Origin: Candidatus Doudnabacteria bacterium
GTDB taxonomy: Bacteria > Patescibacteriota > Doudnabacteria > UBA920
Direction of reading: 5' to 3'
Length of the DNA stretch: 64,000 nucleotides
Assembly (NCBI GenBank): GCA_963768175.1
Contig: CAVYGQ010000002.1
Location: 7,270-71,269 of the forward strand
Positions within the stretch are counted from its first letter, which is position 1. Every line of letters begins with the position of its first letter. This document shows, one piece after another, positions 3,975 through 64,000 of the stretch. The notes beneath the pieces are model-generated. The model did no database searches. It was not told where the DNA came from and saw nothing but the letters and a program-made list of their open reading frames with translations. The translations under genes were made by a program, and so were the position numbers.

Positions 3975-4076
3975 CGAAGAGCGGCGTCATCCTGAACGGA
4001 GTGAAGGATCTTTTATTACTTGACTTGTTTGAGATTCTTCGGTCGGTTGCTACTGCCTCAGAATGACGCCGAGTGA
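3975..4076. repeat. palindromic element family B (GGCGTCATCCTGAACG-AGTGAAGGATC ... CAGAATGACGCC)
   Basis: Long imperfect inverted repeat. Related copies at 53749, 59479 and 59920. Confidence 0.6.
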
Positions 4077-5147: not shown

Positions 5148-5467
5148 CAATTTTCGCTAAAGGCAGAGTCGCCTGCGGCGGAAAAGTAATATAGAAAACA
5201 AAATATGCCTACTCCCAACAGCCAACCCCCGGTAAATAACTACGACTCCAGATGGTTTATTTGGACCATTGTTTTTTTGGTCGTAACCGGTATTTCTTTG
5301 GTTAGCTATATTACCTTAAGCGGTACTGGGGATAACGATTCAGTAACTCCAACAGTGGTTACTCACCACGCAGTTCATCTTAAGTAATTTTGGTTTAACC
5401 TAAATTTTTTAAAGCTCGGCCCACGGTTTGTTGGGGCGGAGTTTTAAAAATTTATTGAGATTTTTAC

Positions 5468-14700: not shown

Positions 14701-17700
14701 CCCCCACGGCTTTCCAGGTGCAAAACGCCAGCGGCACCCCAATCTTGCTGGTAGATACCACCCCGACCTTTGGCGCCACCACCACCAATTACATCGCCAA
14801 TCCGGGCTTTGAAGTCAACACCTCCGGTTGGGCGGCTTCCGGCACCGGCGCCACCATTGCCCGGGTGACTACCAATAAGTATATGGGTCTGGCTTCATTA
14901 AAGATTGACAGCTACGGCTCGGGAGCCGGCCAAGGAGCCAGCACCACTGCCTTTGTCATGAGCCCCGCCGCCGGCACCTATGTCTTAAGCTTCTACGCCC
15001 GCACCGACATCAGTTCCTCCAGCTTTAGCACTTTAATGGCCGGCTATAGCACCAGCACCCAGTTCTCCGCCTGTACCCTAAACTCCAACACGGTCTCCAA
15101 CCTGGGTTGGAGACGCTATAACTGCAGCTTTACCGTAAGCGGCCCCATTACCCAAATCTTCATCGGCCAATCCGATGCCAACCCCAACCGCACCTTCTAT
15201 ATTGATTCCATCCAGCTGCAGTTGGGCAGCGCGCCTACCCCTTATGCCATCGGCAACATCCAGCTCCGCGGCGTCATTACCAGCCCGGTGTCCCTGCAGT
15301 CCCTGTCCAACTCCGTCACCGCTTTCCAAATCCAGGATCAGACCGGAGTGTCCAACCTGTTCATCGCCGATACCTTAAACAACGCCATTGACATCGGCAC
15401 CTCCACCGGCACCTCCGTTTTGAACATCCAGGGAGCAGCCGGTACCTCTAATTCTTTATTAAACATCTCTTCCTCCACCGGCGCTTCCATGTTCTATATT
15501 GCGGCTACCGGCAGAATCGGCATTTCTTCCAGCACCCCTGCGGCAACTCTCTCTCTGCAAGGCACTTCGGGAACCAATGCCCTGTACATCGCCAGCTCCA
15601 CGGGAACCGGCTTAATGGTCATCCAGCAAAACGGTAACGTGGGCATCGGCTCCTCCACCCCCACCGGGTTATTATCCGTGCAGGGAACCAGCGGAGTGTT
15701 TACAGACTTAAGCGATCTGGTCTTTACCGGTACCGGTCCTTTAGCCGCTACCACAGTCAACGGCTTAAAGATCCAAAGCTACCTAACCTACGGGGCAGGC
15801 GGCCAGTTTAACGGCATTTACCTGCCGATAACCGGCTCCGGTACCGCCACCGGCACCATTGTTGGCATCAACATCGGCAGCATTACCGCCGGCAGCGCTA
15901 CGGCCACCGCCATCTCCATCGGCAGCGGCTGGAATTCCTACCTGAACCTTGCCACGACCGCCACCACGACCTTAATCAACATCCAGGGCACGGCCGGCCG
16001 CGACACCCTAAACATCTCTTCCTCCACCGGCGCTTCCATGTTCTATATTGCGGCTACCGGCAGAATCGGCATTTCTTCCAGCACCCCTGCGGCAACTCTC
16101 TCTCTGCAAGGCACTTCGGGAACCAATGCCCTGTACATCGCCAGCTCCACGGGAACCGGCTTAATGGTCATCCAGCAAAACGGTAACGTGGGCATCGGCT
16201 CCTCCACCCCCACCGGGTTATTATCCGTGCAGGGAACCAGCGGAGTGTTTACAGACTTAAGCGATCTGGTCTTTACCGGTACCGGTCCTTTAGCCGCTAC
16301 CACAGTCAACGGCTTAAAGATCCAAAGCTACCTAACCTACGGGGCAGGCGGCCAGTTTAACGGCATTTACCTGCCGATAACCGGCTCCGGTACCGCCACC
16401 GGCACCATTGTTGGCATCAACATCGGCAGCATTACCGCCGGCAGCGCTACGGCCACCGCCATCTCCATCGGCAGCGGCTGGAACTCCTACTTAAACCTTG
16501 CCACGACCGCCACCACGACCTTAATCAACATCCAGGGCACGGCCGGCCGCGATACTTTGAACATCTCTTCCTCCACCGGCGCTTCCATGTTCTATATTAC
16601 AAATGGCGGCAACGTCGGCATCGGCTCATCCAGCCCCATCGCTACTTTAGCCCTAACCGGCACTGTCGGGACCAACCCCTTAGTGGTTGCCTCTTCCACC
16701 GGTACCCAGCTTTTGACAATCCTGCAAAACGGCAACGTGGGCATCAATACCAGTACGCCCGGGGCGACTTTAGCCATCCAGACCCAGGCCGGAGTTAACG
16801 CTTTCACCGTGGCTTCCAGCACTGGCTCCACCACTACCTACTTTACCATTACCAGCATTGGCAACGTCGGCGTCGGCACGGCCACTCCGGCAAGCAGGTT
16901 TGTGGTGGCCGCTAACTGTTCCGGCTTCAACGCCAACCCCGGCGCCTGTTCCGATTATGCCGAATTATATCCTGCCAGCGAGGATATTACTGCTGGTGAT
17001 GTGGTGGTTATAGATACCTCGGCCTCTGCGGCCGCGGTCAGGTTAAGCACTTCTTCCTACGATTCCAACCTTTTGGGAGTGGTCTCCACTAATCCGGCTA
17101 TGGTTATAGAAGGCGACAGCGTGCAGTTTATGAACGGCAATTACCATAATGATCCGCGCCGTCCGGCCGTGGCGCTGGCCGGGCGCGTGCCAGTCAAAGT
17201 TACCAACGAGAACGGCAATATTTATCCTGGTGACTATTTAACTTCCTCGGCTTCGCGACCGGGCTTTGCCATGAAAGCCACAGGCGCAGGCATGGTTTTA
17301 GGCCAGGCGCTTGAAAGTTTTAATCCGTCTTTTGACAACGCCACAGGCACAGTTATGGTATTTATCAAACCCATGCACTATGTGCCAAAAGTGGCTGATT
17401 TGCTTCAAATTGGGGCAAATATTGACAATCAGGCATGGCTTTTGTCGCTGGCGAATTTGAATATGACCAACGCTTCGGTCTTTGGCGATATCGCCGTTAC
17501 TGGCTCTTTGGCTGTGCAAAATGATCTTCATGTGGGTGGCATAATTTACGTTGCGACTTTGAATGTGGACACCATTAACGCCAAGAAATTATGTTTGGGG
17601 CAAACTTGCGTGACCGAAGACCAGCTTAAAGCAATATTACAGTTCGTAAACAGCCAAAACCAAAATTCCTCGAACCAGCCCGTCACCTCCGGTTCGGGGC

Positions 17701-17780: not shown

Positions 17781-18114
17781 ATTCGGGGCAAGTTGCCGGC
17801 ACTTCCACACCGGCCGCTGTTGATACTAATTTGCCGCCAGAAACCTCACCGGATACGGGCAATACGGTAGATACGATAAATGTTGCCCCGTCTGACACCG
17901 CGTCGCCTTCTTCCACTACCGAGTCATCACCGTCACAGGATCCCGCGCCAGCCGCGGTGCCTGCTCCCCAAGCTGACCTGGCACCATTGGATGCGCAACC
18001 GGCATCCGATTCTTCCGCTCCAGCCACCCCTTAAAAAATTGTTTGTAAATAAAGAGGCCTTTTACGCTACGCAAAAAGTCTCTTTATTGTGGTCTAATTC
18101 TTGCTGATAAGCCA

Positions 18115-18232
18115 AAAAAAGTATCGGTTAAACTATTAAGTATCGTTTTAACAAATAAATATCGTTTAAATTAATTTATATCGGTTAGACAAACAAATAT
18201 TGTTTAAACTATAATATATCGGTTAAGCTATA
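18115..18232 (+). promoter_or_regulatory. iteron-like array: six (A)TATCG(G)TTWAAC direct repeats at about 20-21-nt spacing upstream of the second HTH gene
   Basis: GTATCGGTTAAAC, GTATCGTTTTAAC, ATATCGTTTAAAT, TATATCGGTTAGAC, AATATTGTTTAAAC, TATATCGGTTAAGC. Confidence 0.55.
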
Positions 18233-18239
18233 TAATGTC

Positions 18240-18521
18240 ATGCTTACCCCAGATCAGCAAAAAATTTCAAATTCCAGCAGGCTTGTGTCCTTAAGCCAAG
18301 CCGCGTCACAGACGCCGTATTCGGCGGAGTACTTAGGTTTGTTGGCGCGGAAGGGGAAACTGAAAGCGGTAAAAATCGGCCGCGACTGGTTGACAACCGA
18401 GCAAGCGGTTAAAGAATATACGACAAAGCAAATACAAAAGCACGAGAGAATGCTAAAAAAACTGAGTTCGTCAGGCGAGGGGGGAACGGCCACAAAAACG
18501 CTGAATTATCATCACGAATAA
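18240..18521 (+). CDS. small HTH protein (excisionase-like), paralog of 11458..11742
   Basis: TPYSAEYLGLLARKGKLKAVKIGRDWLTTEQAVKEY shares about 55 percent identity with the upstream paralog. Confidence 0.45.
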   Translation: MLTPDQQKISNSSRLVSLSQAASQTPYSAEYLGLLARKGKLKAVKIGRDWLTTEQAVKEYTTKQIQKHERMLKKLSSSGEGGTATKTLNYHHE

Positions 18522-31491: not shown

Positions 31492-33252
31492 ATGGATACG
31501 CCAATAAAAACCAGCCCTGCTCCAGTCTCTTCTTTGGGTTTTGAGAAATTTTTGGTTGATAACGGATTTATCAAAGCCCAAATTGCCGCCCAGATTCAGG
31601 CGCTGCGGCAGAAAACCGGCCGAGATTTTGGGCAACTGTTAATAAGCCAAAAAGCTTTGGACGAAGAAGATTTAACCAAAGCCAAAGCGGCTTTTTTTAA
31701 TTTACCATACATTGATTTGCGGCAAGTACCGGTGCTGCCTCAGGTTTTGGCTTTAATCCCCATTGAATCCGTAAATTTTTATAACTTTGTGCCGTTTGAG
31801 CTTACCGGCAGGAGTTTGAAAGTAGCGATTACCGACCCGTCTAATTTATCCGCTTTGGAAGCCTTGGAATTTTTAGGCCAAAAGCAAAATTTGCAGGTTC
31901 AGTTGTATTTGGCTTCGGAAACCTCTGTAGGAGTAGTCATGGGGAAAAAGCAGAACTTAAAAAAAGTCGTGGGTGAAGCCTTAAAGGATATTCAAACCAA
32001 AGAGACCGCCTCACAAAAACCTGCCGAAGCCAGAAAGGAACAAAAGCCCAAGGTTATTGAAGAGGCGCCTATAATTAAGATCGTGGAGGTAATTTTAACC
32101 AATGCCATCGAGGCAAACGCCTCCGATATTCATATTGAGCCCTCGGAAAAAGATGTACGGGTACGCTATCGGATTGACGGTATCCTTCATACTTCGTTGA
32201 TGCTGCCCAAGAGCGTGCAGCCATCCATTGCCTCCAGAATCAAAATTTTGTCCAATTTAAAAATTGACGAATCCCGTCTGCCCCAAGACGGGCGGTTTCA
32301 TATGGAAGCCGGGAAAAAATCCGTGGATTTGCGCGTTTCCATTTTGCCTCTTATTTACGGCGAAAAAATTGTCATGCGTATTTTGGATAAAACCACCAAG
32401 GCCCCGACCTTAGACCAGCTTGGTGTGCGCGGCAGGGCTTTGTCCTGGATCAATGAAAATCTTAAAAAGAACCACGGCATTTTTTTAATCACCGGACCCA
32501 CCGGCTCAGGTAAGTCCACCACGCTGTATTCAGTTTTATCCATTCTTAATACCACCTCGGTTAATATTGTTACTCTGGAAGACCCGGTGGAATATTTTAT
32601 CGAAGGAGTCAACCAAAGCCAAATTAATCCGGACATTGGCCTGACTTTTGCTTCCGGCCTTAGGAGTGTTTTGCGCCAAGATCCTAATATAATTATGGTT
32701 GGTGAAATTCGTGACAAAGAAACGGCGGAATTGGCCGTGCAGGCGGCTTTAACAGGCCATCTGGTCTTTTCCACTCTGCATACTAACAACGCCATCGGTG
32801 CCATTCCCCGTTTAATAGATATGGGCATGGAACCTTTCCTGCTGGTGGCTTCAATAAATGTGGTTGCCGCCCAGCGCCTGATCAGGAAAATTTGCCCGGA
32901 TTGCCGCAAGGAGGTGGTTTTAACTAAAGCCGTGGAAGAAGAAATCAGGAAAGAAATTACCGGAGTCCCAGACGATTATTTTGAAGGTTTGGATAAAAGA
33001 AACTTGAAAATTTATAAGGGGGACGGTTGTGAGAAGTGCGGGCATACTGGCTACGTCGGTCGTATGGGGATATTTGAAGTTCTGCCTACCACCACGGAAA
33101 TTCAAGATTTAATTTTGGGGAGAAATACCGCCCACAGAATTTATGAAGAGGCGCAAAAAATCGGCATGGTTAGTTTAAAACAGGATGGCATTATTAAAGC
33201 TTTACGCGGCGATACCACCATGGAAGAGGTTATTAGGGTAACAACGGAGTAA
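31492..33252 (+). CDS. pilB: type IV pilus assembly ATPase PilB (GspE family)
   Basis: N-terminal GSPII_E_N, Walker A GPTGSGKSTTLYS, Asp and His boxes, C-terminal tetracysteine CPDC...CEKC. Confidence 0.9.
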   Translation: MDTPIKTSPAPVSSLGFEKFLVDNGFIKAQIAAQIQALRQKTGRDFGQLLISQKALDEEDLTKAKAAFFNLPYIDLRQVPVLPQVLALIPIESVNFYNFVPFELTGRSLKVAITDPSNLSALEALEFLGQKQNLQVQLYLASETSVGVVMGKKQNLKKVVGEALKDIQTKETASQKPAEARKEQKPKVIEEAPIIKIVEVILTNAIEANASDIHIEPSEKDVRVRYRIDGILHTSLMLPKSVQPSIASRIKILSNLKIDESRLPQDGRFHMEAGKKSVDLRVSILPLIYGEKIVMRILDKTTKAPTLDQLGVRGRALSWINENLKKNHGIFLITGPTGSGKSTTLYSVLSILNTTSVNIVTLEDPVEYFIEGVNQSQINPDIGLTFASGLRSVLRQDPNIIMVGEIRDKETAELAVQAALTGHLVFSTLHTNNAIGAIPRLIDMGMEPFLLVASINVVAAQRLIRKICPDCRKEVVLTKAVEEEIRKEITGVPDDYFEGLDKRNLKIYKGDGCEKCGHTGYVGRMGIFEVLPTTTEIQDLILGRNTAHRIYEEAQKIGMVSLKQDGIIKALRGDTTMEEVIRVTTE

Positions 33253-33345
33253 TGACAAAAATGACAAAAACGACGGAAATTAAAAAAATTACTGCATCAA
33301 TATTTTTGTCATTTTTATTATTTTTTTAATTTTTGTCATTTGCTT
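33251..33345. repeat. pil-cluster inverted-repeat element family C (arms ATGACAAAAATGACAAAAA / TTTTTGTCATTTTTATTAT), copy 1 of at least 5
   Basis: Related copies at 33790-33885, 36263-36360, 37485-37580 and 40525-40595 (partial). Each ends a few nt upstream of, or overlapping, the next start codon. Confidence 0.7.
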
Positions 33346-33773: not shown

Positions 33774-33893
33774 TAAAATTTTTCGTTTTAGCATTAATTT
33801 TTTAATGACAAAAATTAAAAAAATAATAAAAATGACAGAAATATTACTGCAGTCAATTTTTGCTCAATTTTGTCATTTTTGTCAATAACCCTT

Positions 33894-36258: not shown

Positions 36259-36539
36259 GTAGCAATGACAAAATTGACAAAAATTAAATAAATGACAAAA
36301 ATAATGTACCCAATAATTTTTTAATTTTTGTTCATTCTTGTCATTCTTGTCATTATCCCTTATGTGTATAACTCTCCTTGCCTATTAATAAAAAAATGGT
36401 ATAATATAATTAACTTAAATATTATCCTTTAGTTTCTAAAAAACGCCGTGACTTAAGTTGGAGGGGACAAAGAGCTTAAGCTGGTTTTTTCCTAGCTTAA
36501 AGTTCGGCGGGGAATTAAAGGGTTATTTTTAGAATAAGA

Positions 36540-37086: not shown

Positions 37087-37485
37087 GTGAATTTTCATTT
37101 TTCAAACAAAATTAAAATTTTATTAAGCAGCCTCATAGCGGCTGTTGTTTTATTATTGGCGGTTGTTGGAGGAGTAAATAACGGCAAAAAAATCGCTCAA
37201 GCAAAAATTCTTATCCAAACTTCCAAGAGCGCGGCCTCGGCCCTACAATATTTTTATCAGGATCAAAACCGCTACCCCACGGCCACGGAGTTTGAAAATC
37301 AAAACCTTATGTTAAGCTATTTCAGTAATTTCCCTTTACCCAATTATCCATCCTCGGCCTGCAGCCAGAGCTTTGTTTATAAAAGAGCGGATCCGGCGGC
37401 TTTTAGCTTAAGTTTTTGTTTGCCGGTTGCTTCCAGTGGTTATCAGGCGGGATGGAACAATATTAATGGCTCGATGGGGAAATGA
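37087..37485 (+). CDS. hypothetical membrane-anchored protein with C-terminal Cys pair (pilin-like fold possible)
   Basis: N-terminal TM without a GFTLIE motif. Cys pair ACSQ...FCLP. Confidence 0.3.
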   Translation: MNFHFSNKIKILLSSLIAAVVLLLAVVGGVNNGKKIAQAKILIQTSKSAASALQYFYQDQNRYPTATEFENQNLMLSYFSNFPLPNYPSSACSQSFVYKRADPAAFSLSFCLPVASSGYQAGWNNINGSMGK

Positions 37486-37563
37486 CAAAAAGGACAAAAA
37501 CGACGTAAATGACTAAAATGTGACTGCGGTTTATTTTTGTCATTTTTATTATTTATTTAATTT

Positions 37564-39561
37564 TTGTCATTACTTTTTATGTTCAACCTAGAAAAATTCC
37601 GCCTCCCTTACCGCGAAGACTTAACATTCAGTTGCTTGAGTTTTTTAGTTTTTATTGTTCCTTTGGCTTTTTTTTTGCTGACTAACGAGAATTACGAAAC
37701 CGCAAAGTTTGTCCTGTTTTTAATTTTAGCCGGCTCTAGCTTAGTGGCATTTTTAAAACGGCGGGAATTGAATGAAATTTCGGTAAAATTCCAGCAGCCG
37801 TTTTTTTATTTGCTCGCCGCGATGCTTTTTTGGGCTGTTTTGTCGGCCGTTTTCTCCAGTGATGTTTTATACAGCATCTTTGGTTTTTACTACCGTTTTA
37901 CCGACGGTTTGGTTTTTTATTTTTGCCTGGCGACATTTTTAATTTTATTGGTCAATGTTTTGGACAAAGGCCGGTTGGTGTTTTTGCTGCAAATTTTAGT
38001 TTTTGATGCTTTAATTGTGGCTATTTTAGGATGCCTGCAAAGCGTCGGCATCACCTATTATGGGGGGATAACTTCCAGCGGCTTAATGCTCGGGCCCAGT
38101 TTGTTGGGCAACCCGGATTTTAGCGCCATGTTTTTGGCGGCAGTATTGCCTTTTGCCCTGGTTTTTTTTAGCAGCGCCGGGAAATTTTCCGCCAAAGTTT
38201 ATTATGGTTTGTGCGTTTTTATTATTATTTTGGCAAGCCTGGCATTCGCCAGCAGGGGGGCGCTTTTGGCCATAGCCGTAAGTCTAACTTTGGCCTTGGC
38301 CGGATTTTTGATTTTTCATCTGCAAAAAAAATTTTTTTTCGGTTTGTTGGCGATTTTGCTAGTCGGGTTGGTATTGGGCGGGGGTTTTTTAAAAGCTGTC
38401 AGGCCCGGAGCAGTAAGCACCATTTACCAATCCGTAGACGCCAACACCGTTGCCAGATTAGCGGCGTGGCAGATTTCCCTGCAGGGAATTGGCCAGCATC
38501 CGTTGTTGGGAAGCGGACTGGGAACTTATGTTTTATTTTTTGAGCACAATCGTCCGCAAAGCATGGCTACGCTAGTGGGGGTTTTTGACGATCCCCACAA
38601 TTTATTTCTACGCATGGCGGTAACCGAAGGCATCCCTTTTGTTTTAATTTTTTTCGGATTGCTCGTAGCGGCCGGCACCAGCGCGGCTAAACAACTAAAG
38701 CAGGAAAAGGACCTGTTAACTTTAGGATTTTTGGTAAGCCTGGTTGCTTGGTGCGTCGGAGTAAGCTTTAACCCGGTTCCTATCCCTATGTTTATGCTTT
38801 TGGCGGTAATACTTTCCGGACTGCTTGTGGGGCATACCGAAAGCAAAAATTTAAAGTTAAACGCAAAAATAAAATGGGCGGTTTATATTTTTGCCGGAAT
38901 TTTTATAGTTTTCGGCATTAGTTTGGCGACTTCGGAATATGTTTTTGGCTTTGCCAAAAGAGATTATCTTAATCAGGATTACGGCCAGGCTTACAACTTA
39001 AGCGTTTTGGCGGAAAAAATTAATCCAACCAACCGTTTGTATGAAATTTATCGGATAGGCGCTGAAATCGGCTTGAATAAAGACCCCCAGGGAATTGTCA
39101 AAGACATCAACCGTTTTACTCTTACCCATTCAAGCTATACGGGCACCTTTGTTGAGGCCAGTAATATGTATAATTTGCTTTATTCTTCTACTGGCGAGAA
39201 AATTTATTTATGGTCCGCCATAACCGAAATGGATATGGCTTTAAAAATAGATAAATTTTACGCCGAAAGATACGGCCAGGAAGCCTTATATTATTATGAG
39301 CTTAATGATTTAAACGCATCCAAATCCGCGGTGGTAAAAAATTTAAGTTTGGAGGACGATAATTTTGCCCCTTGGATTTTGCTGGCAAAAATTTATCAGT
39401 TGGAAGGCAATAAAGCCGCGACTGTGCAGGCGCTGTCCCGAGCCTTTAAGCTTAGGCCGGACATCCCCCAGATTGGCTATTACCTCTATTTGGCCAAAAC
39501 CCAAGCCGATATAAAAACTGTGCCGCTTCGGATTGCGCCCATGCCTCCGCATTTGGAATAG
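37564..39561 (+). CDS. O-antigen ligase (Wzy_C)-like polytopic membrane protein with C-terminal TPR repeats; candidate pilin O-glycosylation enzyme (PglL/PilO-type)
   Basis: About 12 TM helices, a large periplasmic loop, and TPR-like C-terminus (...LAKIYQLEGNKAATVQALSRAFKL...). Located directly after the pilin gene. Confidence 0.55.
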   Translation: MSLLFMFNLEKFRLPYREDLTFSCLSFLVFIVPLAFFLLTNENYETAKFVLFLILAGSSLVAFLKRRELNEISVKFQQPFFYLLAAMLFWAVLSAVFSSDVLYSIFGFYYRFTDGLVFYFCLATFLILLVNVLDKGRLVFLLQILVFDALIVAILGCLQSVGITYYGGITSSGLMLGPSLLGNPDFSAMFLAAVLPFALVFFSSAGKFSAKVYYGLCVFIIILASLAFASRGALLAIAVSLTLALAGFLIFHLQKKFFFGLLAILLVGLVLGGGFLKAVRPGAVSTIYQSVDANTVARLAAWQISLQGIGQHPLLGSGLGTYVLFFEHNRPQSMATLVGVFDDPHNLFLRMAVTEGIPFVLIFFGLLVAAGTSAAKQLKQEKDLLTLGFLVSLVAWCVGVSFNPVPIPMFMLLAVILSGLLVGHTESKNLKLNAKIKWAVYIFAGIFIVFGISLATSEYVFGFAKRDYLNQDYGQAYNLSVLAEKINPTNRLYEIYRIGAEIGLNKDPQGIVKDINRFTLTHSSYTGTFVEASNMYNLLYSSTGEKIYLWSAITEMDMALKIDKFYAERYGQEALYYYELNDLNASKSAVVKNLSLEDDNFAPWILLAKIYQLEGNKAATVQALSRAFKLRPDIPQIGYYLYLAKTQADIKTVPLRIAPMPPHLE

Positions 39562-40520: not shown

Positions 40521-40648
40521 AGGTATAATAAATAGGTAATGAACAAAAATGACAAAAATTAAAAAAATGAGCAAAAATTAAAAAATCCGGTATTTTCGCC
40601 GTTTTTGTGATTAAAACATCCCTTTTGAAATAAAATTTATCTCCAATA

Positions 40649-42141: not shown

Positions 42142-42224
42142 GCGCTGCAAGAATTGTTAAATTGATTCATTGTTATATTGTTGTTTTCTTACAATGTAAC
42201 AATAAAGCTGTCATCAGGTAGTTT

Positions 42225-42602
42225 ATGGAAAAGAAGTATCTGCAACTTAACGATATTGACTGTTATAAAATCGCATTTAATTTATCTAATTATGTTTGGA
42301 ATCTAGTTATTACTTGGGATTATTTTCCAAAAGATACTGTTGGCAAGCAATTTGTTAAAGCTGTTGATTCCATATCCGCAAATATTGCCGAAGGATTCGG
42401 GAGATTTGGGAAAAAAGATAAAATACATTTTTATTATTATAGTTTTGGATCATTAAAAGAATCATTGGATTGGAATGAGAAAGCGAAAATTAGGAAGTTA
42501 CTTATTCAAGAACAGTACCTTTATATTTTTACTGAGCTTAATAAACTTCCTAAATCTATACACCAGTTAATCCAGTATACCAATCTTAAACTGAAACAAT
42601 GA
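42225..42602 (+). CDS. four-helix-bundle protein (TIGR02436, formerly named 23S rRNA intervening-sequence protein)
   Basis: Sequence pattern ...AFNLSNYVWNL...KAVDSISANIAEGFGRF.... Confidence 0.65.
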   Translation: MEKKYLQLNDIDCYKIAFNLSNYVWNLVITWDYFPKDTVGKQFVKAVDSISANIAEGFGRFGKKDKIHFYYYSFGSLKESLDWNEKAKIRKLLIQEQYLYIFTELNKLPKSIHQLIQYTNLKLKQ

Positions 42603-43339
42603 AGCAATATAACAATAAAACAATTTTATCAGAGCAAAATGGCTTTACCCTGATGGAAATAATGGTTGCCACCGTAATTTTTGCCATGGTAACGGTGTCT
42701 TTGCTGTCTTTGTTCAATTATGTTTTAAAAATTAACCGCCGCGGCGAAGCCCTAAGGCAGGCTTCCCAGGATTCCCGCGATTTTGTGGAATTTTTGGTCA
42801 AGGAAATCCGCAACGGGCAGATTGACTATTATGTATACAATGGTTTTTATGGGTCCTTTATTAATGGCGACAACAGTAAGCCTTGCGGTCCGCCCACTAC
42901 CCCCGGAAATCCTGTCGTCTCCACAGACAACCCCACCTATTGGCCAAAAAGCAATTGGCTCGGAATTATTAATACGGACAATGTTCAAGAGTGTTTTTAT
43001 TATGCTAAGGCCGACGGGATTACCTACGTAGATACTGTCGGAAGTAATCCCAGTACTTTTAACTCCGCAGGCGGGGGCAACGCTTTAGTTTTGGAAAAGC
43101 AGGGCATTACATCGGTACAAAAGCTAAATCCGCCCAACTCGCGCATAGATAATCTAATGTTTTTAATTCGTCCGCTAACAGACCCTTATACCACCACTAC
43201 GCCCGGAGGCTTGGCTAAAATCCAGCCCAGTGTCGTGATTATAATTAAGTTTGTTGTCCAATTGCCAACCGGCGAGCAGGTGCCGATATATTATCAAACA
43301 GCGGTGTCCGAAAACAAGTATGATATCCCGAATCACTAA
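42599..43339 (+). CDS. pseudopilin
   Basis: N-terminal NGFTLMEIMVATVIFAMV. Confidence 0.55.
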   Translation: MKQYNNKTILSEQNGFTLMEIMVATVIFAMVTVSLLSLFNYVLKINRRGEALRQASQDSRDFVEFLVKEIRNGQIDYYVYNGFYGSFINGDNSKPCGPPTTPGNPVVSTDNPTYWPKSNWLGIINTDNVQECFYYAKADGITYVDTVGSNPSTFNSAGGGNALVLEKQGITSVQKLNPPNSRIDNLMFLIRPLTDPYTTTTPGGLAKIQPSVVIIIKFVVQLPTGEQVPIYYQTAVSENKYDIPNH

Positions 43340-46143: not shown

Positions 46144-46437
46144 TGAACTGGGAGATTTTGAAAGAATTTTAGTTTATTTCTAAACGTTCAAGTTTATCAA
46201 GCACCAGTTTTTGATGTAAAGTAAAAAATCTGTTTGTCATGGTGGAAACTACTTTTTTAGAAAAGTCATAAAACTTTTCAAAAGGTGGTGCTGGATTTAT
46301 TTTACCATAATTTGCGCGATTTGGCGCTGTGGATAAACCCAGCACCACTTTTCGGCTTTGAAAAGTGGTGCTGGGTAAACCTCTTGTTATCAAAAGCATT
46401 CAAAAATGCTATAATAATAAGGTATTTAAGCAAATTT

Positions 46438-48486
46438 ATGGTCAAAAATGAAGCAAAAAACCGAATAGAAAAATTGCGGGAACAAATAGAAGATTTGCGT
46501 TATCGTTACCATGTTTTAGACGACCCTAAGGTTACCGACGACATTTACGAATCCCTCCAAAGGGAGCTAAAAGCATTGGAAGAACAATACCCGGAATTTA
46601 AAGATGAATTTTCCCCGACCAACCGTGTAGCCGGCAAGCCGCTGGATAAATTTGTAAAAGTTAAGCATGACGTGCGCATGCTGTCTTTGAACGACGTATT
46701 TTCCAAAGAGGAATTTAGGGATTGGTCAAAAAGGATGGAAAAGATTTTAGATGGCATTAAGACCAGAGAAAAAACTTCTTATTTTGCCGAAATAAAATTT
46801 GATGGTTTGGCTGTATCATTAATTTATGAAAATGGTAACTTTATAAGTGGAGCTACAAGGGGTGACGGATTCATTGGAGAGGATATTACTCAAAATTTAA
46901 GAACTATCCAATCAGTTCCTTTAAAATTGCGGCAGCCATTTCCTGAATTTATAGAAATTCGTGGCGAGGCTATTATGAGTAAAAAAGTTTTAAAGTATTT
47001 GAATACAAAATACGAAAAAGAAGGGAAGCCGCTTTTAGCTAACACCCGGAATGCGGCAGCGGGCAGCCTGCGGCAACTTGATTCAAGCTTAACGGCAGAG
47101 AGAAGATTAGAATTTTACGCTTATGATATACCCAACAATCCAAAAGTCCCGGGATTGATTAACGACCACAGGTTTAATCCTTCGAATACGCATTCGGGAT
47201 TACATAAGAAACTTATAGATTTAGGTTTTAAAACACTGCCAACCTATGAGTATAAGTCTGAAAGCTTGGAAGAGATTGAAAAATTTATAGATAAAATTGA
47301 AAAGTTGAGACCAGGATTTCCTTTTGGTACTGATGGGGTGGTTGTCTCTATCGACCAATTAGCTTTTCAAATTATTTTAGGCGTAGTAGGCAAGGCGCCG
47401 CGATACATGGTGGCGTATAAATATCCTGCTGAAAAGGCCACAACCGTTATTAAAGAAATAAAATTTAACGTCGGCCGGACCGGCGTACTTACTCCGTTGG
47501 CAATTTTTGAGCCGACTTTGGTAGCCGGCTCCACTATTGGCAAAGCAACTTTGCACAACATCGACCAGATCAACAGGCTTGATGTCAGAGTGGGAGATAC
47601 CGTGGTTATCCAAAAGGCGGGCGATGTTATTCCGGAGGTGGTGGAGGTTTTACCGAAAATGCGTACGGGAAAAGAGAAAAAAGTGTCGGTGCCCAAGAGT
47701 TGTCCAGTCTGCGGCAGCGAGGTGCAGCAGAGGTCAACCGGAGCCAAAGAATCGCCCTCTGTTGCCTATTACTGTGCCAACCCCAAATGCCCGGCCAAAA
47801 ACCGCCGGTTTATGCAGCATTTTGTCAGCGTGCTGGAAATTTACGAAATCGGCCCAAAAATTTTGGACCGTTTCCAGCAGGAAGGTTTAATTTCCGATGC
47901 GGCGGACATTTTTAGTTTGAAAGCTGAAGATATAAAGGATCTGGAACGGTTTGGCGAAAAATCCGCCGAGAATATTATAGCATCCATCAGCCAGCATAAA
48001 CATGTCAGCCTGTCGCGCTTTATTTATTCTTTGGGCATTTTGCACGTGGGGGAGCAGACCGCGGAAGATCTGGCTGAGCATTTTGGCAGTTTAAAAAAGT
48101 TGATGGACGCGCCGCTGGATGAAATCAACTTCATCGAAAATATTGGCGATGTTGTGGCTCAAAGCGTATATGGCTATTTTCGCCGTAAGGAAAATTTAAA
48201 ATTTATCGGTAAACTGATAAAGAACGGGGTCAAGATCCGCCACGAGCGCAAAAAATCGGGTAAGCTTACCGGAAAGACCTTTGCGATTACCGGTACACTG
48301 GAAAATCTTTCGCGGGATGAGGCCAAGAAGAAAATTAAAGAGCTGGGGGGCAAAACATCGGAGAGTGTTTCTAAACAGACGTCTTGCGTAGTGGTTGGCC
48401 GGGATCCTGGATCCAAATATGACAAAGCCATAAAGTTGGGCGTGGAAATTTTAGACGAGAAAAAGTTTTTAGAGTTGGTCGGATAA
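46438..48486 (+). CDS. ligA: NAD-dependent DNA ligase
   Basis: Adenylation motif EIKFDGLA, OB fold, Zn finger CPVCGS...C..C, HhH and BRCT domains. ORF opens at 46285; ATG 46438 preferred. Confidence 0.9.
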   Translation: MVKNEAKNRIEKLREQIEDLRYRYHVLDDPKVTDDIYESLQRELKALEEQYPEFKDEFSPTNRVAGKPLDKFVKVKHDVRMLSLNDVFSKEEFRDWSKRMEKILDGIKTREKTSYFAEIKFDGLAVSLIYENGNFISGATRGDGFIGEDITQNLRTIQSVPLKLRQPFPEFIEIRGEAIMSKKVLKYLNTKYEKEGKPLLANTRNAAAGSLRQLDSSLTAERRLEFYAYDIPNNPKVPGLINDHRFNPSNTHSGLHKKLIDLGFKTLPTYEYKSESLEEIEKFIDKIEKLRPGFPFGTDGVVVSIDQLAFQIILGVVGKAPRYMVAYKYPAEKATTVIKEIKFNVGRTGVLTPLAIFEPTLVAGSTIGKATLHNIDQINRLDVRVGDTVVIQKAGDVIPEVVEVLPKMRTGKEKKVSVPKSCPVCGSEVQQRSTGAKESPSVAYYCANPKCPAKNRRFMQHFVSVLEIYEIGPKILDRFQQEGLISDAADIFSLKAEDIKDLERFGEKSAENIIASISQHKHVSLSRFIYSLGILHVGEQTAEDLAEHFGSLKKLMDAPLDEINFIENIGDVVAQSVYGYFRRKENLKFIGKLIKNGVKIRHERKKSGKLTGKTFAITGTLENLSRDEAKKKIKELGGKTSESVSKQTSCVVVGRDPGSKYDKAIKLGVEILDEKKFLELVG

Positions 48487-50113: not shown

Positions 50114-51694
50114 AGAAAAAATTAAAGCGGGCCGGCGGCGACATCGTAAGGCGATGCGCGCGCGGGTCCGCTAACTTTTAATATTTAACCTTCAACTTCC
50201 AATACCTGTGGTTATCTTTGGGGAATACATTTTTTGAAAAACTAAAAGGCCGCTTATTTAAGGTTGAAATTTTTTATTAACCCTAAACCAGCCACTTCTT
50301 GACAAAGATATTAAAATCATCTAAAATAGTTAAGCAATAAGTTAATAAGAAACGACTATTATGAAAAAAGCTTTATTATTAAGGAAAACGCGGTTTATGT
50401 AAAACGGCCAATTTAAATTGTGCCTGACATAGCCGCGAAAGCGGTTTTTTTGTTGAAAAGCGACACCAACACACGAATACACGCGAATGACACGAATCAA
50501 AGACCTTTAAAATTATCGCCGTATACTTACTGCTCTGCGGATCTCAGCGTTCCAATTTTTTTGGGAACACAGGCTCGTAGAACCGATTTAGAGCAGTAGC
50601 TATATGATGGTAATTGTATTCCTCTGAACAGGCCAAGGGCCTGTGCCACAGCGACGATTATCGTCAGGTTCTTTAACAACTAAATAAAATAAGCCACCAC
50701 GTATAGAATCAGGCGTGGATGGCTTATGGGTAGAAACATTGTAAGAACTAACACACCAATTAACACAGATTGAAAACAAATGAACACGGATTCGTGTTAA
50801 TCCGTAATTATCGGTGTCAATTAGTGTGCAGAAAAGAACATTGTATCCTTACGCAGTTTGCATCAAACAGTTGTAAGATTTAGGATTAAAGATTTAAGTG
50901 GCTGCAGATTGCAGTTACTTACAATTTTAATCTTTCAACTCTCAACTAATTTGGTGGTCACAAATTGCTAGTTAATACTTGTCCCCGCGAAAGCGGGGAT
51001 CAATAGAATATAAAATATATAAGGGTATACGGTGGATGCCTAGGTAATATGAGCCGATGAAGGACGTGATAGCCTGCGAAAAGCCTCGGGGAGCTGGCAA
51101 TAAGCTTTGATCCGGGGATGTCCGAATGGGGAAACCCATGCACTGGAAGAGTGCATGCCTATATGCCGTGGGGTATGTAGTGCGGGAACCGTGCGAAGTG
51201 AAACATCTCAGTAGCACGTGGAAAATAAATCAATTTACGTCGCAAGACGTAAGAGAGATTCCGTCAGTAGTGGCGAGCGAAAGCGGAAGCATATATCAGA
51301 TAAATCGGAGAATCGGATGAATCGGAAAATCAGATCAAACATTATTGAAAAATGGTGTTTTGATCCGACTTCCGACTTCCGACATTCCGATTATTCTGGT
51401 ATTAGCCCAAACCTAATTAGTGTTTTCTAGATCCCCGCTTTCGCGGGGACAGGATTAAAGATTACAGTCGTTGCTAGTTAGGCGTAATAAGTTAGAGTTA
51501 TTGTCCCGCTGTAACGGGACAGGGAATTATGTTTGTTGTTTAGCAGAACACGCCTGGAACGGCGGACCAAAGAGGGTGATAGTCCCGTATCGCGAAAAAC
51601 CATGCAATTTCCTAACTTTTTCTTGAGTACAACCAGACACGAGAAATCTGGTTGGAAATCAGGTCGACTAAGATCTAAGGCTAAATACTCATAT

Positions 51695-51735
<41 letters not shown>

Positions 51736-52376
51736 CACCCCGGAAGGGGGATGAAATAGTATCTGAAACCGTATACTTACAAGGAGTGGAAGACCTTATT
51801 CTTTTTTCCGCAAGGTTAAGGGAATGGTTAACCGCGTGCCTATTGAAGAATGATCCAACGAGTTAATCTTTAGCAGCTTGATTAAGTCTTACCAAAGACG
51901 AAATCGCAGTGAAAGCGAGGATGAATAGTCCGTATTAGGATTTTGATCGGTCGATGACTTAGGTTATCGACCGCGACAATTTCCTAAATGTTGCTAGAGT
52001 TAGACCCGAAACCCGGTGAGCTACGCATGGCCAGGATGAACGTTATGTAAAAGTAACGGGAGGTCCGGACGCACTATTGCTGCAAAAATAGGCGATGAGC
52101 TGTGCGTAGGGGAGAAATTCCAATCGAACCGGGTGATAGCTGGTTCTCCTCGAAATAGCTTTAGGGCTAGCGTCGAGAGTTCCCTTGAGAGGTAGAGCAC
52201 TGAATGGAAACCTGCTGCGCAAGCGGTAGGCTCCAACCAAACTCCGAATTCTCAAGGTCAAGATCTCGGCAGTCAGTCCGTGAGGTCTAAGCTTCACGCG
52301 ACAAATGGAGAAGAATCCACACCACCGTCTAAGGCCCCCAAATCCTAGCTATAGTGCAAAGGATGTGGGGTTGCTC

Positions 52377-52413
<37 letters not shown>

Positions 52414-52511
52414 TAAAGAAAGCGTAACAGCTCACTGGTCAAGCGATCCCGCGCCGACAATATATAGGGGCTAAGCTAGGTGCCGAAGACGTGGATCAGC
52501 GCGTAGCGCTG

Positions 52512-52649
52512 GAAATCCGAAGCACGAAATCCGAAATACGAAACAATATTTAAATTCAAAAAAATAAATCCGAAATGTCGGGTTTAGATATTTGAATTTA
52601 TGATTTAGAATTTGTTTCGAATTTCGATATTCGAATTTCGAATTTGCAG
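52512..52649 (+). other. intervening sequence (IVS) in 23S helix 45: AT-rich hairpin built from TCCGAAAT/ATTTCGAA repeats
   Basis: Inserted between ...GATCAGCGCGTAGCGCTG and TGCTATGCGCTGG (E. coli position about 1170). Long imperfect inverted repeat GGAAATCCGAAGCACGAAATCCGAAATACGAAAC ... GTTTCGAATTTCGATATTCGAATTTCGAATTTGC. Confidence 0.5.
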
Positions 52650-53729
52650 TGCTATGCGCTGGTGGTAGAGGAGTGTTGTTTGCAGGTTGAAGCGGTATGC
52701 GTAAGCGGCCGTGGACAGCAAACAAGCAAGAATGTTGGAATAAGTAATATATATAGAGGTGAGAATCCTCTTCGCCGAATATCCAAGGGTTCCAGGGCAA
52801 CGATCGTCGTCCCTGGGTTAGTCGATCCTAAGAGCGGGCCCCAAGGGGTCCGTCCGATGGAAAATATGGTTGATATTCCATAACCGCCGTAACATTATCC
52901 AAGACGGGACACATCATGGTAGCGTTAGCGTTATCTGACTATTAGCGTTGTTGTACTTGTAGGATGGTTTTTGAGGCAAATCCCAAAGACCTATGCAATT
53001 ATTTCTTACCTCGCAAGAGATGGAAGTAAACGTTGTAATTTCGAGAGTACAAAGAAACCTGGCAACGGGAATTAGCGCAAACCAAGGTGTCAAGAAAAGC
53101 GTCGTGGTTAGGTGCTAGGGTGATCGTACCGTAAACCGACACAGGTGGATGGGGAGAGAATCCCAAGGCGTCCGGAACAATGTTCGTTAAGGAACTCGGC
53201 AAAAAAGCAGGTGTACCTTAGGTATATACCTTGACCTTTTATATGCTGGGTAATGAGAAATTGGAGAAGATAATTCTCCATCAGGAAAGTGGATACCAAA
53301 CAGCCGCACTTATCATGCAGCTGGGAAGGGCTTGACCGATAATCAAGTTTCGGCCTCTGGCCGAGTCCACCTAACAAAGGAGGGAATTCCAGTGTGTGCA
53401 TCCATGGCACAGCTCCGTGCCGCTACTTCATCCTAAAGAGGGTGAAAGCAACTCCGGTCATCGGGGCTGCCTCTTTCCATAGTAGCTGTACACACTGCCC
53501 TCCTTTGGATAATCATCTAATTTTGATTATCCTCATTACCCAGCATATTAAAAGGCCCGCAGCAAAAGACCTCTCCCGACTGTTTACCAAAAACTTAGGT
53601 CCGTGCTAAAGCGCAAGCTGATGTATACGGGCTGATGCCTGGCCAGTGTCAGAAGGTTAAATCCCTTGGCGCAAGCCGAGGGGCCAAGCCCTGATGAACG
53701 CCGGCAGTAACTATAACTGTCCTATGGTA

Positions 53730-54137
53730 ACTGGAATTTATTCTTTTTGGGCGTCATTCTGAGGAGCGAAGCGACGAAGAATCTCAAAATGAGATCCTTC
53801 ACTTCGTTCAGGATGACGCCGATAAGAAGTTTGGCTGCCATAGTAAAATGTAACTATATCGGAAAAAACCTCTCTGAGAAAATTCCGAGGGAAGACTTTT
53901 GTGTCATCGCGAGTGCAGCCGAAGCGATCTTTAAAAGATTGCTTCGTCGGATGCACTCCTCGCAATGACACAGAGGAACCCGTAGAGACTACACGTTGCA
54001 CATCATTTTGGTGATGAAGATATAGTCCGGACTGCATAGCGATATGCAGAATGTGACAGAAATGATCACATTTGTCATTCTGAATTTATTTCAGAATCTA
54101 GATTCCCGCTTTCGCGGGAATGACAATAACAAATCAA
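53730..54137 (+). other. ORF-less group I intron in 23S at the E. coli 1923-equivalent site (between GGTCCTATGGTA and GCGAAATTCC)
   Basis: Exon junction matches CGGTCCTAAGGTA^GCGAAATTCCTTGTCGGG. Conserved R-like GTAGAGACTACACG and S-like GAAGATATAGTCCGG core elements. Peripheral stems carry family B palindromic repeats. Confidence 0.6.
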
Positions 54138-54692
54138 GCGAAATTCCTTGTCGCGTAAGTTGCGACCCGCACGAATGGCATAACGAGTAGAGGACTGTCT
54201 TAACGAACATTCCGATGAACTTACAGTGGCGGTAAAGATGCCGTCTACCCGCAGCAAGACGGAAAGACCCTATGAAGCTTTACTATAGCGTGTCATTGAA
54301 TTAATGCTTTTATTGTTTAGCCTAGGTGGGAGCCTTTGAAGCTTGGGCGCCAGCTCAAGTGGAGGCGACAGGTGAAATACCACTCTGTAAAAATATTAAT
54401 TCTAACCAATGTTTAACCTGCATTGGGACAGTGGCTCGTGGGTAGTTTAACTGGGGCGGTTGCCTCCTAAATGGTAACGGAGGCGTTTATTAAGGTAGGC
54501 TAGGTATGGATGGAAATCATACCGGTAGTGCAAACGCATAAGCCTGCTTGACTGCAAGGGCGGCGACCCGCGCAGGCACGAAAGTGGAAGTTAGTGATCC
54601 GATGCGTTCGAGTGGAAGACGCAAAGCCCAACGGATAAAAGTTACTCTAGGGATAACAGGCTGATCCTCTCCAAGAGTCCACATCGACGAGA

Positions 54693-54731
<39 letters not shown>

Positions 54732-54735
54732 GTGA

Positions 54736-54772
<37 letters not shown>

Positions 54773-55195
54773 TGGTACGCGAGCTGGGTTCAAAACGTCG
54801 TGAGACAGTTTGGTCCTTATCTGCTGTGGGTGTACGAAACTTGAGTAGTCGCTTCGCTAGTACGAGAGGACCGCGAAGCATAGACCTCTGGTGTACCCGT
54901 TGTCCTGTCAAGGGCATGGCGGGGTAGCTAGGTCTAGTTAAGATAAACGCTGAATGCATATAAGCGTGAAGCTGTCTACAAAACTAGGTTTCGTTTTTAG
55001 TCGCAAGACTAAAGAAAGGTTCGGGGAAGACTACCCCGTACAACTATTAGGTTTTAGATTAAAGTTGAAAGACTTAAGTAGCAATACTTAGATCCGTAAT
55101 CTTAAATCTTTAATCTGATATATAGGTTGCAGGTGTAAGCACAGTAATGTGTTCAGCCGAGCAATACTAATCAACCGAAAATTTTAAATTCTATT

Positions 55196-55647: not shown

Positions 55648-55766
55648 TGCGACGTGGGTGGCATTTCCAGCCGGGCTCGACCTGATCCCATCCCGAACTC
55701 AGAAGTCAAAACGGCTTGGGCCAATGATAGTCATACGCATGTATGTGCAAAAGTAGGTGGCTGCCC
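55648..55766 (+). rRNA. rrf: probable 5S rRNA
   Basis: CCTGATCCCATCCCGAACTCAGAAGTCAAAAC (cf CCUGACCCCAUGCCGAACUCAGAAGUGAAAC) and 3' AAAGTAGGTGGCTGCC (cf GAGAGUAGGGAACUGCC). Helix I pairing not resolved by eye. Confidence 0.5.
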
Positions 55767-55850
55767 TTTATATGATTAGCCCCGATGTAAAAATCGGGGC
55801 TTTTCTTTTTGCCGGTAAATGTTATAATTTAACGGATAAAAGGTATTTAA

Positions 55851-59356: not shown

Positions 59357-60013
59357 GATTGTCATTGCGAGCCCCGAAGGGGCGTGGCAATCTGTCAAGA
59401 AGAAAGATTGCTTCGTCGCTACGCTCCTCGCAATGACAATTTGTAGCGAGTCGATTTATCGGTTTTTGCCAGAAAAAAAGAACGGCGTCATCCTGAACGA
59501 AGTGAAGGATCTAGGTATGAGATTCCTCGCTCCGCTCGGAATGACGCCGGGCAGCCGTCAGACTTGAACCGACAAACTGCCCTAAATCAGGGTGAACCGT
59601 GTTATCTTGGTGGAGCGGATTCCGGGATGTTGGTTTCGTACTTGCACGTGACTTCACGTGTCTCGAAATTGCATTTGATTCTGAATGCCATCCCGGGGCG
59701 TAATTCAACGCCGCGAAATAGGGCATTAGTCGGGATTAAGGTAGACCCGTCAGAAAACGCAATGATGAGCTCCTCGTCTACCTTTTTTTCCTTTCTTCGG
59801 CTTTGACCGCCAGAGAAGACGTTTGCTTCCACCTTCTTCCCTCCTTTCGTGCGCCGGTTGCGCTTTGGGAATAGAACAGCTTATTTTAGCAGAGAGAGAG
59901 AGTTTTGTAAAGGCCATTTTATGTCGGCGTCATCCCAAGGAGTGCAGCCGACGAAGGATCTCAGCCAAGAGATTCTTCGTCCCTCAGATGCATTCGGGAC
60001 TCAGAATGACGCC
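59346..60013. repeat. cluster of palindromic elements (family B and the GTCATTGCGAG...CTCGCAATGAC subfamily) filling the glmS-acs spacer
   Basis: Inverted repeats at 59346-59435 (GTCATTGCGAGCCCCGAAGGGGCG...CTCGCAATGACAAT), 59479-59553 (GGCGTCATCCTGAACGAAGTGAAGGATC...GGAATGACGCCGG) and 59920-60013. Confidence 0.6.
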
Positions 60014-63321: not shown

Positions 63322-64000
63322 ATGTATCAAAACTATCAGCAACAATTCGCAGACGAACTTAAGGAAATCAAAGATGCCGGGATGTGGAAAGATGTCGGGG
63401 TCTTGGAAGGCAAGCAGGGGACAGAAGTAATGATCAAAAATGACAAAGACGACGGAAATGGCAAAAATAAGGGAACAAAACTTCTCAATTTCTGCGCGAA
63501 TAACTATCTGGGTTTGGCATCATCGGAAGAACTTGCGCAAGCAGCCATTGACGGTGTAAAAAAATACGGCTTTGGAGAGGCATCGGTTAGGTTTATTGTC
63601 GGTACATCCACTATCCATAAAGACTTGGAAAAAGAAATCAGCAAATTTTTTGGCACCGAGGACGCCATTACTTATACTTCCTGTTTTGACGCCAACACCG
63701 GTTTGTTTGAAACGATTTTAAAAGAGGGGGATGCGGTATTTTCGGACGAGTTGAATCACGCGTCAATCATTGACGGCATCAGGCTATGCAAGGCGGAACG
63801 GTTTAGGTATAAAAATTCCGATATTGCGGATTTGGAAAATCAACTCAAGGCCGCCGGAGACCGCAGACGTAAGTTGATAGCGACTGATGGGGTGTTTTCT
63901 ATGGATGGTATTACCGCCAAAGTTAAAAAGATTTGCGATTTGGCGGAGAAGTATGGGGCGTTGGTTATGGTGGACGACAGCCATGCCAGCGGGGTATTGG
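63322..64000 (+). CDS. kbl: 2-amino-3-ketobutyrate CoA ligase (glycine C-acetyltransferase), 3'-truncated by window end
   Basis: LNFCANNYLGLA, ...SCFDANTGLFE..., DELNHASIIDG, ATDGVFSMDG, MVDDSHA. An extra NDKDDGNGKN segment corresponds to a partial copy of the pil-cluster repeat. Confidence 0.8.
   Translation, partial: MYQNYQQQFADELKEIKDAGMWKDVGVLEGKQGTEVMIKNDKDDGNGKNKGTKLLNFCANNYLGLASSEELAQAAIDGVKKYGFGEASVRFIVGTSTIHKDLEKEISKFFGTEDAITYTSCFDANTGLFETILKEGDAVFSDELNHASIIDGIRLCKAERFRYKNSDIADLENQLKAAGDRRRKLIATDGVFSMDGITAKVKKICDLAEKYGALVMVDDSHASGVL

Follow-up and report, generated by a model that had tools for sequence, protein, structure and literature searches.

The tip of helix 45 (H45) in the 23S rRNA gene of the window (the whole 64,000-nt stretch of DNA that was analysed) is occupied by the ORF-less form, ~133 nt long, of a small cassette that at other loci encloses the gene for the 23S_rRNA_IVP protein between inverted arms of tandem heptads. 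Judged from the distribution of its homologs, the insert most likely derives from a mobile palindromic element, a copy of which was inserted into the loop of this helix, and we put at roughly 0.6 the probability that it is an intervening sequence (IVS) that would be excised by RNase III, with the ends not rejoined. Fragmented 23S rRNA and intervening sequences have been known since the 1990s. The placement by sequence of one IVS-type insert in a family with intergenic, 23S-tip and IVP-bearing copies bears on the origin and spread of IVSs and on the role of the four-helix-bundle protein that is encoded in IVSs. It also moves the view of IVSs as selfish mobile elements from inference to something testable by comparative genomics, offers the arms, the clamp and the IVP protein as concrete substrates for biochemistry, and suggests for the CPR a second source of rRNA-gene insertions beside homing-endonuclease introns.

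The 23S gene of the window exceeds the 2925-position bacterial model by ~1250 nt, and an alignment to the 23S of E. coli (Ec) spreads the additional sequence over a dozen sites, with insertions of 219 nt after Ec283, 138 nt after Ec1163 (H45), 210 nt after Ec1679, 61 nt after Ec1743, 408 nt after Ec1931 and 83 nt after Ec2834 (Table 1). The gene is unlinked to a 16S gene, none having been detected in the window by the Rfam scan. Several insertions, belonging to at least two kinds, are present in the gene, the H45 insert being one of them. Relatives for comparison were collected in a scan with the neighbouring LigA (46285-48486), which yielded 48 loci; the nearest of these all come from MAGs of the Patescibacteria/CPR (Colwellbacteria, Doudnabacteria, Nomurabacteria and Paceibacterota), with identities of up to 77%, and several of them include the 23S gene because the synteny between LigA and 23S is conserved.

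Table 1. Coordinates of the rRNA genes, of the insertions in the 23S rRNA gene and of the IVP gene in the window
Feature	Coordinates	Strand	Remarks
23S rRNA gene	51009..55190	+	4182 nt; Rfam LSU_rRNA_bacteria 2243 bits, model positions 1-2925
5S rRNA gene	55654..55769	+	Rfam 5S_rRNA 68.7 bits; 463 nt downstream of the 23S gene
Hairpin-type insertion near Ec283 (the second of this type)	51293..51405	+	fold of 51285-51540: z = -6.4
Whole helix-45 insertion	52500..52658	+	159 nt; flanked by the halves of the native stem, GGAUCAG (to 52499) and CUGGUGG (from 52659)
Clamp, 5' half	52495..52511	+	AUCAGCGCGUAGCGCUG; outer 5 bp are native H45
Heptad-periodic hairpin element, ORF-less	52513..52645	+	nhmmer family profile 95.1 bits, E 1.8e-27 forward
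Clamp, 3' half	52647..52663	+	CAGUGCUAUGCGCUGGU; pairs with 52495-52511
Structured insertion, H63 region	53235..53555	+	~320 nt; perfect closing stem of ~24 bp
Group I intron	53730..54136	+	407 nt, Ec1931/1932; Rfam Intron_gpI 46.8 bits (slightly under the Rfam gathering score of 50), E 8e-11
23S_rRNA_IVP/four-helix-bundle gene	42225..42602	+	PF05635 E 2.2e-19; TIGR02436 75 bits

The insertion after Ec1931 is a group I intron, whose limits were set by clean empty sites in the relatives L012 and L039. Nested within this intron are small palindromes that recur in intergenic DNA: the one at 53775-53821 matches 59483-59529 and 3982-4011, and the one at 54097-54118 matches 51426-51447 and 50980-51001. 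The hairpin near Ec283 has arms of 7-9-nt tandem units (AAUCGGAG... / ...CUUCCGA; TRF periods 7-9), and no homolog of it was found in the relatives; the adjacent segment 51406-51535 is common to L002, L009, L039 and L007. The structured insertion in the H63 region covers the insertions after Ec1679 and Ec1743 and folds with great stability (-155.7 kcal/mol, z = -11.4, for 53200-53560), and it has no match to an Rfam family; L002 has an even longer insert in the H63 region. Just upstream of the 5' end of the 23S gene, a TAAGATT heptad array (50874-50898) is complementary at 15 of 15 positions to an AATCTTA array (55087-55116) inside the insertion after Ec2834; the two arrays could be copies of one repeat family or could take part in long-range pairing in the precursor.

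The original prediction described a 138-nt imperfect hairpin at 52512-52649, in H45, the classical site of IVSs. Helix, site and hairpin are all borne out by the alignment with E. coli, by the comparison with relatives and by folding, and the interval itself corresponds essentially to the A+T-rich core (profile match 52513-52645); the full insert is larger, with limits that we drew from the native stem GGAUCAG...CUGGUGG common to the window and L002, the closest relative. Between the conserved GGAUC and GGUGG at the tip of H45 (E. coli ~1164-1185) the window has 162 nt, as compared with 17-22 nt in the syntenic relatives L012, L018 and L039 and a different hairpin, of 78 nt, in L002. The presence of the insert is thus sporadic, as it is absent from three of these relatives and replaced in L002, and the same element is found in helix 25 (H25) of L009. 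The H45 hairpin of L002 (L002:14538-14616) is heptad-periodic too (TTGGAGA/ATTAGAG... vs ...TTCCAAT), and a partial copy of it lies within the H63 insertion of the same gene (L002:15594-15620).

Folding of the insert of the window gives a single long, imperfect hairpin (-74.4 kcal/mol, z = -10.9; none of 200 shuffled sequences was as stable), in which a G+C-rich clamp of 17 bp is joined to an A+T-rich hairpin of 133 nt. In the MFE fold the halves of the clamp pair at 17 of 17 positions with no mismatch, and three of the pairs are G.U pairs, which exist in the rRNA sense only. The arms of the A+T-rich part are built of 7-nt units (lag-7 autocorrelation 0.62-0.66; TRF period 7), with a 5' heptad array at 52513-52547 (AAATCCG, AAGCACG, AAATCCG, AAATACG, AAACAAT), an apical stem-loop at 52566-52585 and a 3' heptad array at 52611-52645. 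There is no ORF inside the insert, no intron model matches 52470-52690, where the covariance model for the group I core was also without a match, and Rfam returned for the insert generic long-hairpin miRNA models alone, far under their thresholds. The insert therefore has the attributes by which short non-intron insertions of the CPR have been recognized, namely a CPR host, a length of at least 100 bp relative to E. coli and the lack of an intron model or ORF. Removal of an intron-like sequence with religation might be considered, given the genuine group I intron in the same gene, as might a chimeric misassembly, of the kind that repeats can cause in metagenomes; but the lack of a matching intron model, the symmetric position of the insert within the helix between perfectly complementary flanks and the occurrence of the same element in 23S genes of two independent assemblies (L009 and L090) make either explanation highly improbable.

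It had been proposed that the insert was assembled from a TCCGAA repeat family of the intergenic DNA of the window. The insert does belong to a repeat family, though not to one that is dispersed within the window: TCCGAA occurs there 35 times, against an expectation of 31.9 +/- 5.9, BLAST found no significant match that could be a second copy of the insert, and the intergenic hairpins of the window have units of period 8-9 and are different families. The relevant family was found elsewhere. A 20-mer common to the copies in the window and in L009 matched at least 120 contigs in a scan of metagenomes, and a family profile, built from aligned full-length copies, marked 151 places there, of which 76 are full-length copies, and 23 of the matched contigs have 2-4 copies each. 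When run over the 64-kb window, the profile found exactly one copy, the H45 insert, for which both arms and the centre were matched (95.1 bits forward and 69 bits reverse). The family copies are nearly all intergenic, 0-50 nt from the neighbouring ORFs, and have unrelated flanks. Among the aligned dispersed copies the 5' arm (AAATCCGAAGCACGAAATCCGAAATCCGAAACAA) is conserved, though it lay outside the search pattern, the centre varies, and the order of the heptad variants is shuffled between family members. The metagenome matches are unlikely to be assembly artefacts, since the flanks of the copies are independent. No match to the 20-mer was found in viral contigs.

In its terminal inverted arms, small size, non-coding nature and many dispersed intergenic copies, the family fits the traits of miniature inverted-repeat elements (MITEs) and REP-like repeats, for which the Rickettsia palindromic elements offer a comparison, and among which the Correia elements of Neisseria are known to give transcripts that are cut by RNase III. 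As in MITEs, moreover, the short form is a deletion derivative of a longer, ORF-bearing one (see below). Unlike MITEs, the family has arms made of tandem heptads and a long form that encodes the IVP protein and not a transposase; no target-site duplication was seen in 33 aligned copies, and the clustering of the ORFs near dispersed copies revealed no recurrent transposase family. No pairs of empty and filled sites were found for the dispersed copies either, so that the mobility of the element is inferred from distribution only. Relative to co-directional genes, ~20 dispersed copies have the same and 12 the opposite orientation, a bias that is not convincing. An RNAalifold consensus of 35 copies gave no informative covariation signal, because the interchangeable heptads shift the register of the alignment.

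Two further 23S genes harbour the element, each at a different helix tip, so that among different genomes it is found at H25, H45 and H63. In L009, a Patescibacteria MAG, the copy (L009:16057-16185) lies at the tip of H25, after ~Ec540, the other classical IVS site; it is 88% identical to the H45 element, including an identical run of 42 nt, as compared with 84.7% for the 23S cores. The copy in L090, the sole contig with the element inside a 23S gene among the matches listed, is inverted and is placed in H63, between Ec1704 and Ec1770. The 23S core of L090 is 74.6% identical to that of the window, which makes it about as distant as that of E. coli, and the element with its clamp is 79% identical; this difference points to horizontal spread. 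An origin of all dispersed copies from CPR bacteria was considered and rejected, given this distance of the L090 23S and the cross-phylum labels of the IVP subfamily described below.

The rRNA-borne copies also share features that set them apart from the dispersed ones. For all three, the fold in the rRNA sense is more stable than that of the antisense strand (-72.3/-62.2, -65.7/-61.0 and -82.9/-67.7 kcal/mol), and this holds for the inverted copy of L090 as well. The different H45 hairpin of L002 is more stable in the antisense direction (-46.6 vs -40.3 kcal/mol), so the strand signal is not general. The core of the clamp, GCGCGTAGCGC, flanks the copies of the window and of L090 and no dispersed copy; the flanks of the dispersed copies pair for at most 6 bp and have no comparable clamp. 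The clamp core looks like an rRNA-specific adaptation or like a portion of something that moves as a unit from one rRNA site to another.

The distribution of homologous copies also bears on whether the hairpin could have grown in place, with 7-nt units of both H45 strands multiplied by replication slippage and no mobile element involved, as in the cryptic simplicity of eukaryotic expansion segments. The strong 7-nt periodicity of both arms, the shuffled order of heptad variants among family members, the differences in heptamer copy number between Coxiella strains (PMC4990558) and the different heptad hairpin at the same site in L002 would all suit such a process, but copies at H25, at H63 and at more than 100 unrelated intergenic sites agree in the non-repetitive centre and in the asymmetric heptad variants. 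Since independent slippage cannot yield such homologous copies, growth in place is largely refuted, and we give it very little credence. Slippage may nevertheless reshape the arms after insertion of the mobile element.

The link of the element to IVSs is provided by its longer relatives. When all ORFs near the dispersed copies were clustered, one small recurrent protein emerged, which is 23S_rRNA_IVP, and at ~10 loci the heptad arms enclose a gene for this protein (PF05635). Six of these (L121, L120, L069, L093, L128 and L160) have the arms around a gene of ~121 aa that scores 45-50 bits against a PF05635 cutoff of 33.8 bits, two (L126 and L083) have a degraded IVP gene between the arms, and L173 and L174 also carry arm-enclosed IVP genes. 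The full-length cassette measures ~460-490 nt, with inverted arms, AAATCCG-type on the 5' side and CGAATTT-type on the 3' side, around the gene; in L121 a long stem around the ORF results from the pairing of the arms. In L173, positions 2-64 of the family profile match upstream of the gene, overlapping its first few codons, and positions 68-133 match right after the stop codon, and on the contig L174 an IVP cassette and an ORF-less copy lie apart from each other. What remains of the cassette when the body of its ORF is taken away is thus the ORF-less element, and the H45 insert is accordingly a miniature of the IVP cassette.

A homology search with one of the element-borne IVPs returned at least 7,903 relatives, the best 120 of which are 66-73% identical to the query and are labelled as Patescibacteria, Planctomycetes, Phycisphaerae, Thermodesulfobacteriota, Zixibacteria and Nitrospiraceae. 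In all three of the genomic contexts that were looked up, the IVP gene is wedged among co-oriented genes of an operon: with def-fmt in a Patescibacterium, between the subunits of an aconitase-family enzyme in a 7.5-Mb genome, and in an ABC-transporter operon of a planctomycete.

This relationship to IVP cassettes is a stronger link to the IVS protein than the one that had been drawn from the gene at 42225 in the window. That gene was correctly recognized as encoding the four-helix-bundle protein, which is 23S_rRNA_IVP, but its tie to the H45 insert has to be given up, and the gene was rejected as a parent of the insert: its protein belongs to a different IVP subfamily, with no match to the heptad-family IVPs in BLASTP (E 0.08), and it resides in a hairpin cassette of its own, with different inverted arms (42152-42199 and 42586-42626) of period 8. 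The architecture of this cassette is like that of the heptad cassettes, but its family is different.

The surrounding segment 42141-42599, in the spacer between two pilin-like genes, is a hotspot for cassettes. The site is empty in five relatives, and L003 has the same period-8 arms there without an ORF (L003:6194-6431). Three others (L002:5384-5858, L007:6039-6501 and L039:2857-3344) carry, between inverted arms of tandem ACGCGGAT-type units, a gene for a GxxExxY protein (TIGR04256, 100-103 bits).

Insertions at H45 have been described as IVSs in Coxiella burnetii, Leptospira, Salmonella and Campylobacter, and the insert of the window resembles them in the choice of helix, in the replacement of the native tip by a stem-loop, in having a terminal complementary stem, in its sporadic distribution and in its association with an S23p/IVP gene. 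In Coxiella, the H45 IVS has an ORF for IVP and, like the insert of the window, tandem heptamer repeats, and it is cut by RNase III (PMC4990558); excision by this enzyme is demonstrated there, and the present insert is known from sequence alone. Other differences are that the copy in the window has no ORF, that its family resides mostly outside of rRNA genes, and that its stem is composed of a 17-bp clamp and imperfect A+T-rich arms, as compared with the 28-bp terminal stem of the classical H45 IVS. Selfish palindromic repeats of the mitochondrial DNA of Volvox carteri have likewise entered an rRNA coding region, the L8 module of the LSU rRNA, from a dispersed intergenic population (PMC2670323). 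The Volvox case differs in concerning an organelle genome and a 725-nt block of many repeats, with no defined helix tip and no ORF described.

The closest precedent comes from the CPR bacteria themselves. Tsurumaki et al. (2024) surveyed 348 CPR 23S genes and found insertions in 82% of them; short non-intron insertions at IVS sites are called probable IVSs there, and CPR rRNA insertions are said, with citation of Brown et al., to be removed from transcripts (PMC11270868). The short insertions designated 23IS2/23IS4 share with the H45 insert a CPR host, a length of at least 100 bp, the lack of an intron or ORF and a classical IVS site. The site 23IS4, to which the position of the H45 insert may correspond, is described in the survey as consistent with known IVS sites, and the insertions are not connected there with a dispersed family of repeats or with IVP cassettes. 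Both a short insertion of the H45 type in CPR bacteria and its reading as an IVS are thus already in the literature. In the literature searched we found no account of such an insert as a member of a dispersed cross-phylum hairpin family, of one element at H25, H45 and H63 in different genomes, or of a 23S insert as an ORF-less IVP cassette.

A broader proposal, which we put forward as tentative, is that a class of small mobile cassettes spans several phyla and that the classical 23S IVSs might be no more than those of its members that reside in rRNA. Each cassette would consist of hairpin arms of short tandem repeats around an IVP gene or, in sister families, a gene for a GxxExxY nuclease-like protein. 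The targets of such cassettes would be the spacers of operons and the tips of rRNA helices; the cassettes would depend on the transcription of the host and leave behind MITE-like ORF-less hairpins, and IVP might be the factor of the cassette for its own mobility or for the processing of the hairpin RNA.

As for the fate of the H45 insert in the RNA, its site, stem, patchy distribution and link to the IVP family are all compatible with an IVS excised by RNase III. The element would be transcribed as part of the 23S precursor, its arms and the 17-bp clamp would together make an unbroken duplex that protrudes from the solvent-exposed tip of H45, and RNase III would cut this duplex and leave the ends unligated. 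The mature 23S rRNA would in that case consist of no fewer than two associated pieces, of ~1.5 kb and, after removal of the intron, ~2.1 kb, and the insertions at 51293-51405 and 53235-53555, which are closed by long stems, could add further breaks. Fragments of about 1.2 and 1.6 kb had been anticipated originally; these sizes are not supported, because the other insertions of the gene were left out of the prediction. A cut at H45 only is calculated to give pieces of 1491 and 2532 nt, the latter being reduced to 2125 nt without the intron; with additional cuts at 51293-51405 and 53235-53555, the pieces would measure ~0.28, 1.1, 0.58 and 1.2 kb.

A role at the level of RNA, and excision with it, is favoured by the G.U pairs of the clamp, which exist in the rRNA sense only, by the preference for the rRNA-sense fold and by the confinement of the GCGCGTAGCGC clamp core to rRNA-borne copies. 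Excision is further favoured by the RNase III processing demonstrated in Coxiella and by the reported removal of CPR insertions from transcripts. Counting against it are the C.A mismatches that the heptad arms have in the rRNA sense. No gene or signature for RNase III was found in the 64 kb or in the fetched loci, which represent a small sample of each genome, and a search of the literature on RNase III in CPR bacteria yielded nothing useful.

The H45 site of L090 is of interest in this respect. The 23S gene of this contig is 6052 nt long, and the site (Ec1163-1233) holds a 1.5-kb block (L090:4785-6320) with a closing stem of 20 bp. The block contains a gene for tRNA-Cys(GCA) at 5888-5962, identified by ARAGORN and by Rfam (50 bits); at 5234-5330 Rfam, unlike ARAGORN, calls a further tRNA. 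Such tRNA genes within a 23S gene imply that the rRNA is physically split, and the 23S of L090 is presumably discontinuous at H45. The block with its tRNA-Cys gene suggests that a discontinuity at this helix is tolerated elsewhere, which favours excision in the window too.

Helix tips of the H45 kind can also bear expansion segments that are retained. The same mobile hairpin might therefore persist in the mature 23S as an extension of H45, with the rRNA unfragmented, an outcome that we regard as somewhat unlikely. Several observations would accord with it: the tip of H45 is known to be variable, the hairpin is self-contained and stable, the G.U pairs of the clamp would suit any helix at the RNA level, cut or uncut, the window revealed no gene for RNase III, and the same 23S has other small extensions that are typical of the lineage and common to relatives, such as 51406-51535. 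The absence of the insert from three relatives and its replacement by a different hairpin in the closest one indicate, on the other hand, that it is not a conserved structural feature. Furthermore, all experimentally studied bacterial H45 insertions in the literature that we found are excised (PMC4990558), CPR insertions are reported to be removed from transcripts (PMC11270868), and the full-length members of the family carry the gene for the IVS protein. These considerations lead us to prefer excision by RNase III as the probable fate of the insert.

The window contains several other repetitive or structured elements. A type IV pilus-like operon with PilB, PilT, PilC and pilin-like genes has in almost all of its spacers an A+T-rich hairpin of one family, with 9-nt periodic arms (AATGACAAA / TTTGTCATT); members of this family were located at 33251-33341, 33804-33886, 36264-36354, 37480-37571, 40538-40586 and 63427-63467. 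An A+T-rich spacer contains, at 18113-18247, a 19-nt unit (TATCGGTTAAACTATTAAA) repeated in tandem about six times, and these repeats look iteron-like. A perfect direct repeat of 300 nt, with copies at 15460-15759 and 16009-16308 that are 549 nt apart, lies within a G+C-rich (55-57%) region that is rich in shorter internal repeats and is probably a gene for a repetitive surface protein. On the minus strand, 23561-23687 matches the Rfam LOOT RNA with 56.6 bits, as compared with a gathering score of 46.4.
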